Below, one piece after another: positions 6,070 through 17,631 of a stretch of 18,473 nucleotides of DNA (positions are counted from its first letter, which is position 1; every line of letters starts with the position of its first letter). The position numbers and the translations under genes were made by a program. The notes beneath the pieces are model-generated. The model saw only the letters and a list, made by a program, of their open reading frames with translations. It had not been told where the DNA came from and ran no database searches. This stretch comes from Sulfurimonadaceae bacterium (GTDB lineage Bacteria; Campylobacterota; Campylobacteria; Campylobacterales; Sulfurimonadaceae): assembly GCA_041562555.1 (NCBI GenBank), contig JBFEXS010000033.1, forward strand, positions 1 through 18,473. Direction: 5' to 3'.

Positions 6070-7614
6070 TTATGTCTTATAGATATTAAGTTCCTTATTA
6101 AGCTGTTGTGTATTCTCCACAAGATTATCAATGTTATCGACAATCTCCTGAATATTGGAAAAGCTTTCTGTTGTCAATGATTCGACATCATGAATGGTAT
6201 GAACCAACTTCTCAAGCTTCGTAATATTATCACTAAACTGTTCTGCCGAGTTTTCTGAAATTGAAGCTGTCTCATCCATAATCCCGATTGTCTCATGCAA
6301 GCTGGACCGGACTTCCAGAGAATCTGAACTTAAATAGGTGATGTTCTCGGCATTACTTGTCATCTTGTCACTTGTATCATTGATCGCCTGCACAACGATA
6401 TTGACCGTACCATGGATCTCATTAAGGGATTTTTGCGTTCGCTCTGCCAGTTTTCTAACCTCATCCGCGACTACCGCAAACCCCCGTCCGTGTTCACCTG
6501 CACGAGCAGCTTCAATGGCTGCATTAAGCGCCAACAGATTCGTTTGATCTGCGATCTCTGAGATAACCGTCAAGATGTTTTTGATCTCTTCAGCCGATTG
6601 GGTCAACTCATTAAGTTTCTCAGACATCTCATTCTCTATCTCAGCCGTCTGTTCTATACTCTGTGTAAACTTTGTAATCCGCTCACCTATATTTTGCAAG
6701 TTGGTGTTTGCCTCATCGATGCGTTCTTTGGCATAGGAGGTGTTTTGGTTTGTCTGACGGAGTTCTTCTTGCATGGTACCGCTGGCCTGTGTGATCTTTG
6801 AAATAGCCGATTGCTGATCAGCAGAACTTTTACGCAAAGCATTTGTGATCGTATGCACTTTCTGCGTAATTGCAGTCGTCTCGTGGGCAGACCCTTTCGC
6901 TGTATTTAAAACCTTTCTCAAGGTTGAGACAAATGAATGGAACGCAGCTTCCTGTACATTTTCTGCTTTGATATCCAGCGTGAAATCATGGCTTTTTGTC
7001 ATCTCATTCACATTATCTATAATATGCATTGAGCTAAGATACTGTCCTGTCATAACATATACCATGTAGATAAGCACTGCCGCCTCCATAACTACAAAAG
7101 AAGCATGTAAAAAGGCGATATCCCAACCGCAGGCATAGTTGAATATCATTATCTGCATCTCTCCGATCGAGGCACCGTTTAACTGCAGATACGTAAAGAG
7201 CAGATGATGAACGGCGATCGTCAACGCACTCACTATCACGGGCATAGCATCCTTATATAAGGACATAAACGCAAGGACGACAAAGATGTGAAAATGCATC
7301 TCAATACGCCCTAGATGTTGCTGTATCATTATGATCGGGAATCCCATAATCAAAACTCCGATCAAAATACGAGAGAGTGAAGTACCGGGAAAAAACTTAT
7401 ACAGAAAAAAAGCTACCCCGGTCAACATACCGCCGCCTACAGCTCCCAAGAAATACGTATTGTAGGTCAAAGAGGTCACAGCACTGACGATAATCCAATT
7501 GATGACAAAAATATACATAAACATCTTATCTGCATTTTTGGCTTCTTTCAAAAGATTCTCTTTTATTAAACTTGAAAGTCCCTCATAATTCCCAGCTAAT
7601 ACCTTTGCGTTCAT
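6070..7614 (-). CDS. Methyl-accepting chemotaxis protein with a multi-TM (about 6) intramembrane sensor domain
   Basis: Signalling hairpin [41 protein letters not shown]-terminal TM bundle containing EMHFHIF, AVHHL and FLHA; AAAGGA RBS before ATG 7614. Confidence 0.92.
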
Positions 7615-7835
7615 GTATTGTCCTTTGTTCAATGATGGCTCTGTCTCATGCATAGAACATGGGATCTACGAGCACCTTTTCTGATTAATGGTACACATAA
7701 AAGAATAGGATAAAGCTTAGAAAAATAAATTAGGTTTTGTATATACGGACACCCTTCTGGAGAACATGTAGAAACAATTGAATTTACATTCATACTTTTA
7801 CTAGCTTTAAAAGTTAAGTTTTACCCTTCTTGGCC

Positions 7836-9671: not shown

Positions 9672-10430
9672 CTAAACCCCTTTATTTTGATCCCAGAGAC
9701 GAATATGCAAACGATCGCTATACACATATCCTTTACGTTTACAGTACTCGATGACTGCTTCACTGTGATCTTCCAACTCGGTCTTACTTCCACCTTTTGG
9801 CATACAATAGACTGAAATGGATGGTGCGAACTTTATGATATTGCCGATCTCATCATCAACACCGGATCCCAATGAAAACCTGTCCACAGTGAACTTGAAG
9901 AAAGCATCCTGTGAATAGGTCGCAATATTTTGGATTGCCTCCGCATTGATACGTCTGTTCTCAGGTTCACCGCTGTTGCTGAGTTTTACTGAAAGAGCAA
10001 AGGTACAGCGCTGATATACACGGTGCTTTTCAAAGTCGACGTTTATCGCACCGTTTGTCTCGAAAGTGACCTTATGGCCTTTGCCCTGTAAAAATTCTAT
10101 AAAAGAGACAAAAAGGTCATCATTGGCATAGATCAGGGGTTCTCCGCCGGTCAGTACGATATCAGCCTTTATCGGCAGTGTATAGGAATGATAGATATCA
10201 ATAAGCTGTTGCAAGGCTTCGATTTCCGTCCAGGTATCACCAAAGTGTTTCTTATCGACAGCATATACCGTGTCACATCCCATGACCTTGACACCGCTTG
10301 GAGAGACTTCAGAACATCCAAAGCCCTCACATTTCATATTACATCCGCCAAAACGAAAAAACAGAGATGGTGTGCCTAAATACTTTCCTTCGCCCTGGAT
10401 GGAGTAGAAATGTTCAACCAAATAGATCAT
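9672..10430 (-). CDS. queE: 7-carboxy-7-deazaguanine synthase QueE (radical SAM)
   Basis: EHFYSIQGEG, FFRFGGCNMKC...CDT, LTGGEP, ETNG, SVKL and RLH motifs; TGATG coupling to moaA. Confidence 0.93.
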   Translation of the reverse strand: MIYLVEHFYSIQGEGKYLGTPSLFFRFGGCNMKCEGFGCSEVSPSGVKVMGCDTVYAVDKKHFGDTWTEIEALQQLIDIYHSYTLPIKADIVLTGGEPLIYANDDLFVSFIEFLQGKGHKVTFETNGAINVDFEKHRVYQRCTFALSVKLSNSGEPENRRINAEAIQNIATYSQDAFFKFTVDRFSLGSGVDDEIGNIIKFAPSISVYCMPKGGSKTELEDHSEAVIEYCKRKGYVYSDRLHIRLWDQNKGV

Positions 10431-11395
10431 CAACCGCCCGTTTCGTAAAATGCGCGTGTGGAAGCTTCACCATCCGATTCTGACCAACGGTTCTTTTCCG
10501 GTTTGGTACGAATGACCTCTTTAAGTACAAGAGCAGCTTCTTGCACATCACCACGCTTGATCGCATCATGGATACTCATTGCTTCATCAAAATAAAGACA
10601 AGGAATAAGATGCCCCTCAGCGGTAAGACGGATACGATTACACTTTGTACAGAAATCGTCTTTATATGGCTCGATTATCCCAAAACGGTATCCATCTTCG
10701 CAACGGTAATAGTGTGATGGAGAAGTCGCATCAAATCCCTCATCGGTGAACGTGTAACGTTCGCCGATCAGTTTCAAAAGTGCTTCACTCTTCATACCCT
10801 TGATATCGACTTCGGCATGTACGTTTTCCATGTATTCGATATAACGTACAGTGATGTCACGTTCCTTACAATACTCCATCACATCCAGGACCTCATTCTC
10901 GTTCAATCCGACCATCGGGACCATATTGACCTTGACTTTCAGACCTACATGCAGTGCTTCATTCAGACCTGCAAGTACATTTTTCAACACATCTTTTTTA
11001 GCGATCTTTTCTGCCACTTCCGGAATAAGACTGTCAATAGAGATATTGATGCGTTTCAGACCGGCATCTTTAAGTCGTTGCGCATAACCTTTTAATAAAA
11101 AGGCATTTGTCGTCATTGCCAAGTCGATTTCAGGACAATAATCATAGATCATCTTGATGAACTTGTCCAAATCTTCACGTAGCAGTGGCTCTCCGCCCGT
11201 AATACGTATCTTTCTAATACCCTCGTCAATAGCTACCTTCATAAACAAGAACAGCTCTTCAAATTTAAGCAGGTTCTCTTTTGGCACCCATGAAAACGGT
11301 TTCTCCGGCATACAGTATTGGCATCTGAAGTTACATCGTTCTGTAACAGAAACACGCAGATAATCCACTGTACGTCCATAACTATCAACTAGCAT
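10430..11395 (-). CDS. moaA: GTP 3',8-cyclase MoaA
   Basis: [46 protein letters not shown]-terminal GG; AGGG RBS before ATG 11395. Confidence 0.98.
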
Positions 11396-11503
11396 ACAAT
11401 TCCCTAAATGGTTTAATCGTGCAAGATTAACCAAAATATTTATAGGGTCTTATTATATCTGTAATTATGTTTGATTTTTATAAGTCCTTTAAGGGCAAAC
11501 GCG

Positions 11504-11531: not shown

Positions 11532-12371
11532 TCACTCTTGATGATCCAACATTGCCACCAAAGCCCCATAGACCTTGAGTACATTACTGATAGCCGCTGT
11601 CCCCTGATTGAAGTAGGTATTGGTGTCAAGTTCTATATGGTCTTGGTCAACAACGCGATTCAGAGTCAACTCCGTATAGGTATGCAGGCTTTCATTGATC
11701 ATTTGCAATTCACTTTTTTCAAGAGATGCAGGAACCTCCAGTCTAAGATAAGACTCCAACATCATTCTGTACTGTTCTATCTTTCTGGCAAATTGCTGCA
11801 TCTTCGGTGATTCTTGCTTTTTGCAATAACTCCGCGCAACGATCCCTGATCCCATGCCTCGCATCTTACCGATGTTTTCCGTCAATGGCAAAAGTACGTT
11901 GTTCAAAGTAGAGACCATTTTATATCTCTTGGCATCACTGGCAGAGAAATGTGTATCAATGACCCTCTTATTAAAGCTTATCCATCCTTCGATGATATCT
12001 GAGTAACTGGCAAACACCTGTGCCGAGTCCTCTTTAAATGCCCGTCGATTCAGCAGTTCCGTCTTGTTGATAAGAACAGCAGACATCTCTTTGAGCTCAG
12101 GCTTCAAACTGCTTGAAGCAATATTCTTTTCTACTTCCTGAAAGTTTTTAAGCATATTTTGACGCTGACCATAGACCAATAACTGCGCCACTACATTTCC
12201 ATTCATGTAGTTGTTCGTCAAACCGCGTGTCTTCTGTGTCGTGATCACGACATCCTTGATCGAATGCACTAATTCCAAATACGGTTTATCCTCTTGAGCT
12301 TGCGAAAATGGAAAAGCAAAAGCCATCCCTTCTAATACAATCAACCCTACTAAAAATATAATCCTCAACAT
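11532..12371 (-). CDS. Stand-alone secreted nitrate/nitrite-sensing (NIT) domain protein
   Basis: 279 aa from ATG 12371 (AGGGA RBS); signal peptide MLRIIFLVGLIVLEGMAFA; two helical halves with QKTRG and ENIGKMRGMG, resembling the NIT motifs Q-x-ERG and E-x-x-G-x-ERA; YF-x3-T-x2-I tail. Confidence 0.7.
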   Translation of the reverse strand: MLRIIFLVGLIVLEGMAFAFPFSQAQEDKPYLELVHSIKDVVITTQKTRGLTNNYMNGNVVAQLLVYGQRQNMLKNFQEVEKNIASSSLKPELKEMSAVLINKTELLNRRAFKEDSAQVFASYSDIIEGWISFNKRVIDTHFSASDAKRYKMVSTLNNVLLPLTENIGKMRGMGSGIVARSYCKKQESPKMQQFARKIEQYRMMLESYLRLEVPASLEKSELQMINESLHTYTELTLNRVVDQDHIELDTNTYFNQGTAAISNVLKVYGALVAMLDHQE

Positions 12372-12542
12372 ATTTTCCCTTTTCCCTGATTCATCTATAA
12401 ACACCTCGGTATTCATAGATAAATGTACATGTCCTGAGACATGTACTAGGTTTGAGAATTTATGCCGTAATACTGTACGGCAGGAGAACGTGAGCATTAG
12501 GGACTTACCTACTTTCCACAGCGAAGTAGCGCCCCAGGCTCT

Positions 12543-13334
12543 CTATTCATCCTCTTTGGCAAATTTCTCATACAAGAAACTAAGAATTGCTTCACGACAT
12601 CGGATATATTCCGGATCATGCTGCAAGGCAACCCGGTCCCTTGGACGATCCAGATTGACCTCAAGGATCTCTCCGATCGTCGCTTCAGGACCATTGGTCA
12701 TCATGATAACCCTGTCACTCAACAAGACCGCCTCATCAATATCATGGGTGATGATGATGACGGTATTTTTAACATTCTGCTGGATACGCATCAGGTGCTC
12801 CTGCAGATTTGCTCTTGTCAATGAATCCAGTGCACCAAAAGGTTCATCCATCAACAATACCTTCGGCTTGATAGACAAGGCACGCGCAATACCAACACGC
12901 TGCTTCATACCGCCACTGATCTCACCCGGATATTTATCCTTGGCATGATCAAGGTTTACCATCTCTATAAACTTGTAAACACGTTCCTTAAGCTCTTTTG
13001 GGCTCAACTCCGGCATTACCTTCTTGACCGCCATCTCGATGTTTTGATAGACCGTTAACCAAGGCAGTAGAGAGTGATTCTGAAACACCACTGCTCTCTC
13101 CGGTCCGGGTCCTGTGATCTCCTTGTTGTCAAGGATAATGCCACCGCCCGTGGCCATGTCCAATCCGGCGATCATATTCAACAGTGTTGACTTACCGCAT
13201 CCCGAGTGACCGATGATCGAGATGATCTCGTTCTCTCTGATATTCAAGTTGACATCCGTAACCGCCACATACTCTTTTCCCTTTGGTAAAGGAAATACTT
13301 TTTCTACGCCTTCTAAGTCTAAAAACTTGCTCAT
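12543..13334 (-). CDS. nrtD: Nitrate/nitrite/cyanate-type ABC transporter ATP-binding subunit (NrtD/NasD/CynD type)
   Basis: GHSGCGKST, PGPERAVVFQNHSLLPWLTV, ISGGMKQRVGIARAL, MDEPFGALD and MMTNGPEATIGE motifs; GGAGG RBS. Confidence 0.9.
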   Translation of the reverse strand: MSKFLDLEGVEKVFPLPKGKEYVAVTDVNLNIRENEIISIIGHSGCGKSTLLNMIAGLDMATGGGIILDNKEITGPGPERAVVFQNHSLLPWLTVYQNIEMAVKKVMPELSPKELKERVYKFIEMVNLDHAKDKYPGEISGGMKQRVGIARALSIKPKVLLMDEPFGALDSLTRANLQEHLMRIQQNVKNTVIIITHDIDEAVLLSDRVIMMTNGPEATIGEILEVNLDRPRDRVALQHDPEYIRCREAILSFLYEKFAKEDE

Positions 13335-13343
13335 AATTTCCTC

Positions 13344-14153
13344 CTATCGTCTTTTCGTATAATCAAAGTAGTCTGCAATAAATCCCATCATCGTATCAAG
13401 GATGTATCCAACGATACCGACGATGATAATCCCGATGATGATATTCGGATAGTTCAGGTTATTGTACTCATCCCAGATCCAAAAACCGATACCGATACCA
13501 CCGGTCAACATCTCAGCTGCGACGATAACCAACCACGCGATCCCCAAAGAGAGACGCATCCCCGTAAAGATGTACGGGACAGCTACCGGTAGAATGATCT
13601 GCGTCACCTTTTCCAAAGCAGTAAAGCGCAGTACCTTTGCGACGTTCAGATAATCCTCATTCACACTCTTCACACCCAAAGCCGTATTGATAATGATCGG
13701 CCAGATCGACGTGATAAAGATCGTGGAGATCGCCGTTGCATTGATGTCTTGAAAGACCATCAATAACAGTGGAAGCCACGCCAAAGGCGATACCGGCTTC
13801 AAGATCTGAATATACGGGTTCAACGCCGACATAAAGTTCTGTGACATACCGATCAAAAGCCCCACCGGGATACCGATAGCAATTGCCAAGGCGAATCCGG
13901 CAAATACACGTTCAAGCGAGTTAAGTACCTGCCAGAACAGACCCTTGTCATCCTCATTTTCAACATAAAATGGATCCGACAATGATCCATAAACCTCATC
14001 TCCTTCCGAATTAATACCTCCAAATGCTGCAACATAGGTATCCGATGGAGTCGGCAACTCATCTACTAATGTTGCTATCCCTGACCATGCCGGTAATAAT
14101 ATAAATAAAACCAACAGTGGAAATATAATTTTCTTAACGCTCTCAAAACTCAA
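13344..14153 (-). CDS. nrtB: Nitrate/nitrite-type ABC transporter permease (NrtB/NasE/CynB type)
   Basis: DPFY...DKGL.WQVLNSLERV, KPVSPLAWLP, WPIIINTALGV and WLVIVAAEMLTGGIGIGFWIWDE motifs; TTG start with AAGGAG RBS. Confidence 0.9.
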   Translation of the reverse strand: MSFESVKKIIFPLLVLFILLPAWSGIATLVDELPTPSDTYVAAFGGINSEGDEVYGSLSDPFYVENEDDKGLFWQVLNSLERVFAGFALAIAIGIPVGLLIGMSQNFMSALNPYIQILKPVSPLAWLPLLLMVFQDINATAISTIFITSIWPIIINTALGVKSVNEDYLNVAKVLRFTALEKVTQIILPVAVPYIFTGMRLSLGIAWLVIVAAEMLTGGIGIGFWIWDEYNNLNYPNIIIGIIIVGIVGYILDTMMGFIADYFDYTKRR

Positions 14154-14299: not shown

Positions 14300-15691
14300 C
14301 TATTTTGTTACGAATTTCGGATCCGCACATCCTGCTGGACCATAGGGACATACATATGCAGGCTGTTCTGTTTTTACTGTCCACTTGTTCGCCGCTGCAA
14401 GCTCCTCTTTAGATACTTTTGGACTAGTTACTTTGAAGTCGAAGATATAATCAACCGCTTTGTTTGGATCCCATACTTTTTTATCCATGAACATGTTGTA
14501 TTTATCTACACCGTCCTTTTTCCAAGCACTTGGCGGAAGGCTGTACCCAACTTCTTTCGCTGCGACTTCAAACAGGTCCGGACGATATGTCTTTTCGATC
14601 ACCTCTTTCATGTTTACCGGTTTGTCAAGCTGACCCCATCTGTACATCTGTGTGATGAACCACATACCGTGTGAATAAAACGGGTACGCTGCATAATAGT
14701 TAGCAAACACGTTAAACTGTGGATTAGCCTCAGAGTCCTGACCTTTTAGGTACTGGAATGTCCCTGTCATTGATTTTTCAAGAACCGATACCGGTGCCTT
14801 TACGTAATTCGGTTTTGAAAGGATCTGTGCCGCTTCTTTACGGTTTTCCCATGAAGCATCCAACCACATCTGAGCTTCAATGACTGCTTTCATGACTGCT
14901 TTGGTCGTTTCCGGATTTTTCTCCACGAAATCTGCACGAGCTTGAAGCACTTTTTCCGGGTTGTTGTTCCAGATATCAAAGTTCGTTACTAGAGTAGAAC
15001 CCTTCTTCTTAAGTACGATACGTTCATTCCACGGTTCACCAACACAATACCCTTCGATATTTCCTGCAATCAAGTTAGATGGCATTGTTGGTGGTGGGAA
15101 AGGTTTGATCGTTGCATCACGATCCGGCTCGATACCGGACGTCGCCATCCAATAACGTAACTCATAGTTGTGTGTTGATACCGGGTGTACCATACCGAAG
15201 TTCAATGGCTGATATTTTTCACCCTCCGATGCATGTTTTGCGTCAATATACTTTTTAAGGGACTCTGAACCCAGTGGACGTGCTTTCTTATCCATCCCGT
15301 ACTTTTCCATCTTGCTGATGATGTTGTTACCGAAAGTGATCCCGTTTCCATTGAAGTCAAGACTTAATAGGGCTTGCAGGTTTGCATTACCGTTGATTCC
15401 CAATGTTGCCGCAATCGGCATCCCTGCTAACGCATGTGAAAAATCATACTCCCCATTAATCACTTTTTGCTGGATACCGGGCCATCCGCCACCTTCTTTT
15501 ACTACGTGTACATCCAGACCATACTTATCAAAGAAACCTTTCTCCTCTGCGATTACCAAAGGTGCACAATCTGTCAAGGCAATAAATCCGATTGTCAACT
15601 CTTTTTTCTCTAATTCTGCCATCAATGTACTTGCGACAAGTGACATCCCTAATCCAATTTTCAAAGCTTGTTTCGCTAATGGAAATTTCAT
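14300..15691 (-). CDS. nrtA: CmpA/NrtA-family ABC substrate-binding protein (nitrate/nitrite/cyanate type)
   Basis: IGFIALTDCAPLVIA, HPVSTHNYELRYW, PPP.M, GYCVGEPWN, NPEKV and WFITQMYRWG motifs; Sec signal peptide; AAGGAG RBS. Confidence 0.9.
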   Translation of the reverse strand: MKFPLAKQALKIGLGMSLVASTLMAELEKKELTIGFIALTDCAPLVIAEEKGFFDKYGLDVHVVKEGGGWPGIQQKVINGEYDFSHALAGMPIAATLGINGNANLQALLSLDFNGNGITFGNNIISKMEKYGMDKKARPLGSESLKKYIDAKHASEGEKYQPLNFGMVHPVSTHNYELRYWMATSGIEPDRDATIKPFPPPTMPSNLIAGNIEGYCVGEPWNERIVLKKKGSTLVTNFDIWNNNPEKVLQARADFVEKNPETTKAVMKAVIEAQMWLDASWENRKEAAQILSKPNYVKAPVSVLEKSMTGTFQYLKGQDSEANPQFNVFANYYAAYPFYSHGMWFITQMYRWGQLDKPVNMKEVIEKTYRPDLFEVAAKEVGYSLPPSAWKKDGVDKYNMFMDKKVWDPNKAVDYIFDFKVTSPKVSKEELAAANKWTVKTEQPAYVCPYGPAGCADPKFVTK

Positions 15692-17343: not shown

Positions 17344-17631
17344 CTATCTCTGTTTCATCAGACCCTCTCCCATACGTTCTTCAATATCTGCTTGATGTTT
17401 GGCCATCTCAGCACGAATGATATCCATGACATAGGGTGGGACATTCTCATCCTTATACCAATTGACCGAATCGATATGCCCGCCATAATCACTCCCCAAG
17501 TCTTCTACCTTTTGGGCATACTCATCCATATCCCTGCATATTTCAACACGCATATCAACCATGTCCTTAAGTTCGATGAACCAGGTATCATCGTCTGCCA
17601 TTTTGATGGTAGATGTAAAAACGACACTCAT
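17344..17631 (-). CDS. Small acidic cytoplasmic hypothetical protein, apparently the last gene of the nap operon
   Basis: 95 aa, D/E-rich, no signal peptide or TM; starts 3 nt after the napD stop (TAG-AGG-ATG). Confidence 0.75.
   Translation of the reverse strand: MSVVFTSTIKMADDDTWFIELKDMVDMRVEICRDMDEYAQKVEDLGSDYGGHIDSVNWYKDENVPPYVMDIIRAEMAKHQADIEERMGEGLMKQR

Follow-up and report, generated by a model that had tools for sequence, protein, structure and literature searches.

A stand-alone, probably secreted NIT-domain protein family of Campylobacterota and its possible role as a detached periplasmic co-receptor

The 18,473-nucleotide stretch of Sulfurimonadaceae DNA analysed here (contig JBFEXS010000033.1 of assembly GCA_041562555.1; hereafter, the window) carries a gene for a stand-alone NIT protein, which we call sNIT. 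Our study argues that sNIT looks like a secreted, soluble and output-less periplasmic protein of ~260 residues, exported by the Sec pathway on the strength of a heuristically recognized signal peptide and made of one NIT domain. It appears to belong to an old, exclusively stand-alone Campylobacterota group that lies, in an unrooted tree, beside the ligand-binding domains of receptors. We tentatively propose that sNIT is a detached periplasmic oxyanion co-receptor, which would act in trans on a membrane protein and would not serve the ATP-binding cassette (ABC) transporter encoded next to it.

Results

The start of the gene was set at 12371, and not at the in-frame ATG at 12497 of the public gene call P0002 (321 residues), which we judge wrong, since 30 aligned homologues begin at the methionine of 12371 and a Shine-Dalgarno-like AAGGG lies 5 nt upstream of it. 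As anticipated in an initial annotation made from the bare sequence, the protein matches the Pfam NIT family (PF08376), over residues 41 to 268 and profile positions 2 to 231 of 239 (E value of 1.3e-7; 32.7 bits for a cut-off of 24.9), and its relatives score 33 to 44 bits. The Pfam scan found no other family above its cut-off in sNIT, and thus no HAMP, kinase, MCP or ANTAR domain, and no NCBIfam model matched the protein. Export was assessed with a heuristic rule of our own, not a dedicated predictor, which asks for a lysine or arginine in the first 8 residues and a hydrophobic 10-residue window. This rule is satisfied by 126 of the 130 full-length family members, none of the 130 has a lipobox, and only 4 show a later 19-residue window with a Kyte-Doolittle (KD) value of at least 1.6. 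Together with the helical model described below, the scan and the heuristic agree with the earlier description of a signal peptide and then helical sequence, with no second transmembrane (TM) segment and no HAMP, kinase, MCP or ANTAR domain.

The AlphaFold2 model of sNIT, computed from a 31-sequence alignment, is all-helical, with eight long helices past the signal helix, a predicted local distance difference test score (pLDDT) of 90.9 and a predicted template modelling score (pTM) of 0.86; residues 13 to 22 are below a pLDDT of 50. Foldseek against the Protein Data Bank (PDB) placed NasR (4akk) first (E value of 6.6e-6, probability of 1.0, TMq of 0.73), with a runner-up at an E value of 0.068. 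VIA-align gave NasR 4akk a Z score of 25.1 and a root mean square deviation of 3.7 Å over 260 residues (model 10 to 279 on chain 9 to 283), for a runner-up at 13.6. Because both programs set NasR first and apart, the NIT fold surmised in the initial annotation is confirmed, and the model depicts sNIT as a single chain of two four-helix bundles, as in the NIT domain of NasR, the protein ending within a few residues of the last helix. Sequence-only PDB searches with sNIT, with the family profile or with a canonical NIT domain of the same genome did not reach NasR.

Each half of the protein contains one conserved arginine, within QKTRG (residues 46 to 50) and GKMRG (residues 168 to 172). Among the 130 full-length members, R49, G50, G58, F120, E165, R171, G174, G176, F254 and I261 are invariant, Q46, P162 and Y123 are kept in 129, and T45 and K47 in 127. 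Position 48 is a threonine in 124 of them and never a glutamate, position 170 is occupied by M, L, I or T, and conservation extends to K47 and K/Q169. The NIT consensus is ERG/ERA, with a glutamate directly before each motif arginine. The genome of the window also encodes two canonical NIT receptors, one a hybrid kinase (TM-NIT-TM; contig C60) and the other a TM-NIT-TM-GGDEF-EAL protein (contig C17). Their motifs read RERG/KERA and SERD in a MAFFT alignment, where R49 aligns with the arginine of RERG/KERA, and R171 with that of SERD in the NIT kinase; the changes from glutamate to threonine and to methionine are thus real differences. The fused chemoreceptor and GGDEF-EAL relatives have glutamate-less motifs as well (TQKLRG or IQLHRG; GKSRG or GQLRG), and hence such motifs mark a Campylobacterota NIT subfamily and not sNIT alone, many members of this subfamily scoring at or under the Pfam NIT threshold. 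The altered ligand motifs pointed out initially are therefore present, with arginines kept and glutamates replaced by T and M, but they are not a trait special to sNIT.

A side observation concerns the glutamate in NasR itself. The primer printed for the NasR "R49A" variant reads ...LQC-A-RG..., with the alanine just before R50, and the label may be off; this is our own reading of that paper (PMC9581486) and has little weight. The paper reports that the variant retained a reduced response (PMC9581486), and if the primer is read correctly, the glutamate would not be essential in NasR.

Although first described as an orphan, sNIT is not one in the sense of being unique: the protein has 207 near-length matches and its family profile 1,660 representatives, both at an E value of ≤1e-3. 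Among the 120 matches listed of these 207, nearly all have 264 to 295 residues, and the source names are Sulfurimonas, Sulfurimonadaceae, Arcobacter and Campylobacterota, with SMGD1_0840 of S. gotlandica GD1 among them. The best ~35 profile matches are stand-alone proteins or fragments, after which come proteins of ~675, 815 to 825 and 1,015 to 1,240 residues. These longer relatives are TM-NIT-TM-HAMP-MCP chemoreceptors (some with hemerythrin or PAS), HAMP-PAS-GGDEF-EAL proteins and histidine kinases, and in 77 of 82 fused relatives hydrophobic segments flank the domain at either end. The sNIT open reading frame (ORF) stands alone in 89 of 89 loci (80 from metagenomes, 8 from genomes, and that of the window), and a search for longer proteins with the single sNIT sequence came back without any fused near-relative, a result that the tool itself rates as weak evidence. 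In a FastTree phylogeny of 158 domain sequences, a branch with SH-like support of 100 has 55 stand-alone rows on one side and 83 fused, 4 intermediate-length and 16 stand-alone rows on the other. Of these last 16, 12 form a second stand-alone clade with N-terminal membrane anchors, some members of which have a second membrane helix and no output. As the root of this tree is unknown, we limit our claim to one apparently old, uniformly stand-alone group, as distinct from a recent truncation. Paralogues and tandem copies occur, with up to 5 matches per genome and tandem pairs in L079 to L081 and L085, and a single-sequence scan of the genome contigs with sNIT gave only 3 loci.

Other NIT-only proteins were encountered (P0213, P0223, P0230, P0231, P0194, P0204, P0261 and others; loci L020 and L026), the anchored clade being part of them, and a further NIT-only set consists of ~320-residue proteins with only a C-terminal hydrophobic tail. 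At L004:6215-7048 (the same record as G258:C44), the orthologous NIT gene is split into ORFs of 86 and 181 residues, with one TAA within the match, and could be a pseudogene or an assembly error. In databases, proteins of this kind already carry the label "nitrate- and nitrite sensing domain-containing protein", and NIT-only clusters from Campylobacterota turned up in the ESM Atlas. Literature searches, with supplements outside their scope, found no paper describing or testing a free periplasmic NIT protein.

The family diverges rapidly around its fixed motifs. In syntenic loci, the flanking proteins are 82 to 93% identical to those of the window (92 to 98% in genome G252), while sNIT is 49 to 56% identical (67% in G252); where sNIT has 49 to 56%, NrtA has 89 to 93%, and the porin (54 to 72%) is the only other similarly divergent protein of the cluster. 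The nonsynonymous distance (dN) is 0.27 to 0.50 for sNIT versus 0.02 to 0.14 for the flanks, and sNIT evolves 4 to 15 times faster than the flanking genes, with its two motifs staying fixed. The synonymous distance (dS) is saturated and dN/dS not estimable; hence, we claim no positive selection. A hypervariable cassette replaced by recombination was rejected as the sole cause of this divergence, since the flanking DNA is also only 80 to 90% identical. As judged from these comparisons and from the distribution given below, sNIT is an apparently accessory, fast-evolving periplasmic module with an invariant core, and not a fixed subunit of a conserved transporter.

The distribution of the family was examined in 151 genomes of the same taxonomic family (profile E value of ≤1e-15). 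Matches were found in 39 genomes, 4 of them only in open frames of 830 to 969 residues, leaving 35 carriers. Their presence is patchy, with 4 of 16 genomes in the genus of the window in addition to its own genome, none of 29 in another genus, and up to 5 matches in one genome. A NapD match was found in 28 of the 35 carriers and 59 of the 116 non-carriers, and an NrtA-type protein (E value of ≤1e-50) in 9 carriers and 43 non-carriers, the carriers without it including genomes in 1 or 2 contigs. As related genomes are not independent, these counts are descriptions and not tests. The slot between nrtC/D and moaA holds sNIT in the window, G252 and G258; a 285-residue membrane protein plus sNIT in G245 (the L005 record) and in metagenome locus L039 (genus not given); and the 285-residue protein without sNIT in G300, as on contig C129 of the assembly of the window. 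In G235 and G268, of the same genus, the slot is empty (380 and 309 nt), with no trace of sNIT.

The proposal of the initial annotation that sNIT is a second binding protein for the ABC system is not supported by these data: NrtA-type proteins are found in a smaller share of carriers (9/35) than of other genomes (43/116), sister genomes have the nrt operon without sNIT, and the all-helical fold differs from the alpha/beta two-lobe fold of the substrate-binding proteins of ABC importers, the true NrtA-type protein being encoded separately at 14300-15691. sNIT has no obligate link to the neighbouring transporter, and the nrt genes are its context. As a side observation, contig C129 (L125) carries a second nrtB-nrtC/D-membrane protein-moaA locus with ~80% DNA identity to the window, and contig C125 a partial second NrtA with 94% amino acid identity; they represent either a co-binned relative (contamination of 4.31%) or a true second locus.

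In the window, the minus strand reads, in order, a napL fragment, napD, a 95-residue ORF, a porin-like barrel, nrtA-type, nrtB, nrtC/D, sNIT, moaA, a queE-like gene and queD, followed by moeA on the plus strand and then by a chemoreceptor gene (Table 1). The upstream transporter genes match NCBIfam ntrB (244.9 bits versus 209) and ntrCD (352 versus 291.8). Four nrt-linked loci (the window, L034, L032 and L033) have perfect inverted repeats, unrelated in sequence, 64 to 99 nt ahead of the start codon of the NIT gene. The position is kept while the sequence changes, which would fit a terminator or attenuator hairpin in the RNA downstream of nrtC/D better than an operator for a protein, and the repeat of the window suggests such a hairpin or terminator. 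The 95-residue ORF between napD and the porin (17344-17631, minus strand) is 70 to 79% identical in four syntenic loci and has no Pfam or NCBIfam match. The N-terminal 200 residues of the 527-residue chemoreceptor (6070-7653, minus strand) include about six hydrophobic segments, which contain several histidines; Pfam finds only the MCP signalling domain, and by our reading the protein is without a periplasmic domain.

For the neighbour analysis, the ORFs of all 89 loci were clustered, and the 30 loci at least 40% identical to the protein of the window were taken as its subclade. The nrt-linked layout is present in 9 of these 30 (the window, L004, L005, L032, L033, L034, L039, L046 and L060); the script counted 10, as a generic ABC ATPase of L037 had joined the cluster. 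In 17 of the 30, counted by eye, the gene lies between or beside moaC and mobA, with DUF493 and DUF6781-like genes; the script flags moaC/mobA in 16, and L048 was added by its layout, its moaC probably being hidden under a spurious opposite-strand ORF. The DUF6781-like neighbour was rejected as a periplasmic partner, being a cytoplasmic coiled-coil protein without a membrane segment. The remaining subclade loci are L062, beside napD/napL, L045 and L049, with other neighbours, and L035, with none. A molybdenum-cofactor gene lies at most five ORFs away in 24 of the 29 subclade loci having neighbours, compared to only 2 of 56 among the other 59 loci (27 to 40% identity, Sulfurimonas type). The usual layout of these 59 is trpS, sNIT, then convergent argF and hemB (trpS in 31, argF/hemB in 36), with tandem double copies in four loci.

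Table 1. Features of the sNIT gene and its surroundings (coordinates refer to the window unless a locus is named)
Feature	Position	Strand	Basis or remark
Stand-alone NIT protein gene (sNIT)	11532..12371	minus	279 aa plus stop; ORF, translation, Pfam NIT, start set by alignment with 30 homologues
Signal-peptide-like N-terminus, aa 1-19	12315..12371	minus	MLR, hydrophobic core, AFA; putative cleavage site from the sequence
Motif 1, aa 45-59 (TQKTRGLTNNYMNGN), with R49	12195..12239	minus	End of helix 1 and following loop
Motif 2, aa 161-179 (LPLTENIGKMRGMGSGIVA), with R171	11835..11891	minus	Helix 5
Shine-Dalgarno-like AAGGG	12377..12381	minus	5 nt 5' of the ATG at 12371; read from sequence
Perfect 9-bp inverted repeat (GTACATGTC, 4 nt, GACATGTAC)	12425..12446	minus	In the 171-nt spacer between nrtC/D and sNIT
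nrtA-type ABC transporter gene	14300-15691	minus	Pfam NMT1_2
nrtB-type ABC transporter gene	13344-14153	minus	Pfam BPD_transp_1
nrtC/D-type ABC transporter gene	12543-13334	minus	Pfam ABC_tran
moaA (molybdenum cofactor synthesis), downstream	10430..11434	minus	Pfam Radical_SAM and Mob_synth_C; NCBIfam moaA, 345.8 bits versus 284
~285-aa membrane protein family	L005:7143-7997	plus	
~285-aa membrane protein family	L039:7148-8005		
~285-aa membrane protein family	L116:224-1078	minus	
~285-aa membrane protein family	L125:1471-2349	minus	G000 contig C129

Discussion

We propose a model in which a small anion would be bound between the two bundles of sNIT through the invariant R49 and R171 and conserved Thr/Asn/Gly-rich segments, and in which the loaded or empty state of the output-less protein would be relayed by contact with a membrane protein. 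The pattern is that of a ligand-binding module, since the invariant residues sit in two pseudo-symmetric motif helices, which in NasR bear the arginines critical for the ligand, while the rest drifts, paralogues and tandem copies exist, and the nearest relatives are receptor ligand-binding domains. Having no output domain, sNIT could act only by contact with another protein or by ligand sequestration. Nitrate or nitrite would most likely be the anion, a plausible ligand favoured by the arginine pair and by the enrichment with nap. That an anion is bound, which one it is and that sNIT acts in trans are all inferred from sequence and models, and this co-receptor reading, although still tentative, ranks first among those considered here. 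Among the roles put forward in the initial annotation, we likewise place the trans-acting ligand donor highest.

The closest structural counterpart is the NIT domain of NasR from Klebsiella oxytoca (4AKK), with the same double four-helix-bundle fold and one arginine per half (R50 and R176, versus R49 and R171 in sNIT). NasR differs in being cytoplasmic and fused to an ANTAR RNA-binding domain, whereas sNIT is probably secreted and without output; the two are only 12 to 16% identical, and the glutamate before each arginine is T and M in sNIT. According to the NasR study, two invariant arginines on adjacent helices are critical, the R50A and R176A changes abolishing the nitrate response (PMC9581486). 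By profile, the nearest relatives are the fused NIT-like domains of Campylobacterota (loci L014 to L019, L013, L023 and L025; P0148 to P0190; E values of 1e-43 to 1e-21), which share the glutamate-less TQK(L/T)RG and G(K/Q)xRG and the compartment of sNIT. They differ in having two flanking membrane helices followed by HAMP and MCP, PAS-GGDEF-EAL or HisKA-HATPase domains, and lie across the branch with support of 100.

The sensor domains of NarX/NarQ and the PilJ-type domain of McpN resemble sNIT in that each of its halves superposes on their single bundles (McpN 6gcv, Z of 12.4; NarQ 5jgp, Z of 12.3), a Z score of ~12 being common for helical bundles by the warning of VIA-align itself. Their nitrate site is built on arginines, but each of these proteins pairs two identical single-bundle chains that bind the ligand where they meet, and all are anchored in the membrane and carry outputs. 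An arginine-based nitrate site is reported for McpN/NarX (PMC6381276).

As for the proposed mode of action, LuxP-LuxQ, TorT-TorS, MBP-Tar and QseG-QseE are alike in logic only, a secreted protein acting on a receptor in trans. LuxP, TorT and MBP are Venus-flytrap binding proteins, unlike QseG, and QseG/QseE (9m08) is among the weak helical matches to the sNIT model (VIA-align Z of 10.5). A further difference is that no cognate receptor is adjacent to sNIT.

As a NIT domain, sNIT passes the Pfam gathering threshold and has the tandem four-helix bundles with one conserved arginine per half. It is set apart from NIT signalling receptors by the missing fused output, no further domain being present and all 89 loci being stand-alone. 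Several observations weigh against the co-receptor model. The subfamily of sNIT lacks the glutamate before arginine (ERG/ERA) that typifies the NIT domain. The equivalence of R49/R171 with NasR R50/R176 is likely, as gauged from the numbering and from the near-gapless superposition as a whole. A conserved membrane receptor is not among the neighbours in the 89 loci, an ORF of the chemoreceptor cluster lying at most five ORFs away in 5 of them. In the genome of the window, no fused member of the glutamate-less subfamily was found, and a role of sNIT there as competitor or heterodimer partner of a fused receptor is thus not supported. The link to nap is also incomplete, since 7 of the 35 carriers, two of them 99% complete, have no NapD match, and the cross-tabulations were made by hand from tables of genomes that are not independent. 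Lastly, the periplasmic NIT-family domain of the Pseudomonas aeruginosa chemoreceptor PA4520, compared with sNIT by description only, binds neither nitrate nor nitrite and the receptor does not mediate nitrate taxis, and subfamilies with other ligands were proposed, as reported in that work (PMC6381276). PA4520 is a warning that the NIT family name does not give the ligand, which applies with force to sNIT since its subfamily is glutamate-less.

Other explanations have to be weighed with the same evidence. sNIT could bind periplasmic nitrate or nitrite and hand it over to the NrtABC-type importer or to NapA, in line with the second binding protein and the porin-NapA shuttle of the initial annotation, as might be expected from the last gene after napD, porin and nrtABC and before moaA, from the nrt-linked layout of 9 of the 30 subclade loci, from the enrichment of NapD in carriers (28/35 versus 59/116) and from the porin, the one other protein of the cluster that evolves fast (54 to 72% identity). 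We consider such a capture function unlikely, given that NrtA-type proteins occur in 9 of 35 carriers versus 43 of 116 non-carriers and are absent from complete carrier genomes, that within the genus the slot lacks any gene in G235 and G268 and is taken by an unrelated membrane protein in G300, and that the fold is all-helical, unlike that of ABC binding proteins. Moreover, the identities of NrtA (89 to 93%) and sNIT (49 to 56%) argue against a fixed interface, and no transporter is near in 17 of the 30 subclade loci and in nearly all loci of the other subclade. Just as unlikely in our view is that the same fold serves another oxyanion (e.g., sulfite, thiosulfate, molybdate, tungstate or cyanate), in connection with periplasmic molybdoenzymes or molybdenum supply. 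A cofactor gene does lie within five ORFs in 24 of 29 subclade loci, with two or more layouts (nrt followed by moaA, or a place between moaC and mobA), five of these loci have a sulfite-oxidase-type gene nearby, and in L005 a cyanase and a formate/nitrite channel adjoin sNIT. The change of the motif glutamates to uncharged residues, with K47 and K/Q169 conserved, would also make the site more cationic than in canonical NIT, and a case of a NIT domain without nitrate binding has been published (PMC6381276). However, in the other subclade a cofactor gene is near in no more than 2 of 56 loci, such genes may cluster with nap simply since Nap needs the cofactor, and in NasR the pair of arginines is the hallmark of nitrate.

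Below both of these in our ranking, and improbable, is a partner-less buffer or decoy, a free domain that would sequester the ligand and thus damp or delay its access to receptors or enzymes. It would be compatible with the missing conserved receptor neighbour in the 89 loci, with a surface that diverges fast around an invariant motif core and with a presence that is patchy and, within the genus, dispensable; nevertheless, stoichiometric buffering of an anion in the millimolar range would be costly, we know of no precedent for it, and the relatives that retain a C-terminal membrane helix without output (P0136, P0142) suggest that contact with a membrane protein matters. Hardly credible, finally, is the idea that a longer receptor gene is decaying and left this remnant, or that the ORF was mis-called and has no function. 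The wrong start of the public gene call (321 residues) and the internal stop of the L004/G258 relative might evoke it, but the loci are stand-alone in 89 of 89 cases at 27 to 67% identity with the motifs intact, the stand-alone group is monophyletic, and the protein ends near its last helix in a confident model. The truncated receptor remnant envisaged as a possible outcome in the initial annotation is thus not what the homologues show.

Returning to the co-receptor model, a lead to a partner comes from the 285-residue protein that shares the slot with sNIT and has no Pfam match. Its gene ends 3 nt before sNIT in L005 and within a few bases of the sNIT start in L039. In the AlphaFold2 model (pLDDT of 71.9), a helix-plus-sheet domain at the N-terminus leads into four long helices, and Foldseek relates the N-terminal part to the PAS/Cache-type proteins YkuI, KinD, CqsR and Tlp3 (E values of 5e-6 to 1e-3). 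The model is thus suggestive of a sensor-like membrane protein without a recognizable output and, by our reading, with two short periplasmic loops. The family occurs in 142 of the 151 genomes, in several copies, and in at least nine of them, as counted by eye, no more than ~3 kb separates its best match from nrtA or napD. A complex prediction for the L005 285-residue protein with the L005 sNIT (residues 21 to 275) scored 0.00 in both runs for a mark of 0.32, and counts neither way. hhalign found no relation between a 303-residue ORF of L005 and the sNIT family.

A bolder, rather doubtful extension is that the sNIT family forms a new class of detached helical-bundle co-receptors which, once loaded with an oxyanion, would dock onto membrane signalling proteins devoid of a periplasmic sensor of their own. 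One candidate docking partner would be this PAS/Cache-like four-helix membrane family, found in the same slot and translationally coupled to sNIT in L005 and L039; another would be the chemoreceptor with several N-terminal hydrophobic segments, 4 kb downstream. If this were true, the module would give its partners ligand specificity, a binding-protein-dependent signalling without the binding-protein fold, and would let vent and pelagic Campylobacterota swap specificities as modules.

Should sNIT have no ligand or partner, it would stay an ordinary accessory periplasmic protein. As a small, soluble and easily expressed protein, sNIT is suited to settle what the glutamate-less subfamily binds, and its ligand would also assign one to hundreds of uncharacterized chemoreceptors and cyclic di-GMP enzymes with the same motifs. 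If this ligand is nitrate or nitrite, sNIT would be a candidate biosensor scaffold, as NasR already is (PMC9581486). NIT is one of few nitrate-linked sensor domains and has always been discussed within larger receptors. A conserved output-less NIT family raises the possibility that, in abundant sulfur-oxidizing, nitrate-respiring bacteria, sensing may be partly outsourced to free periplasmic modules.

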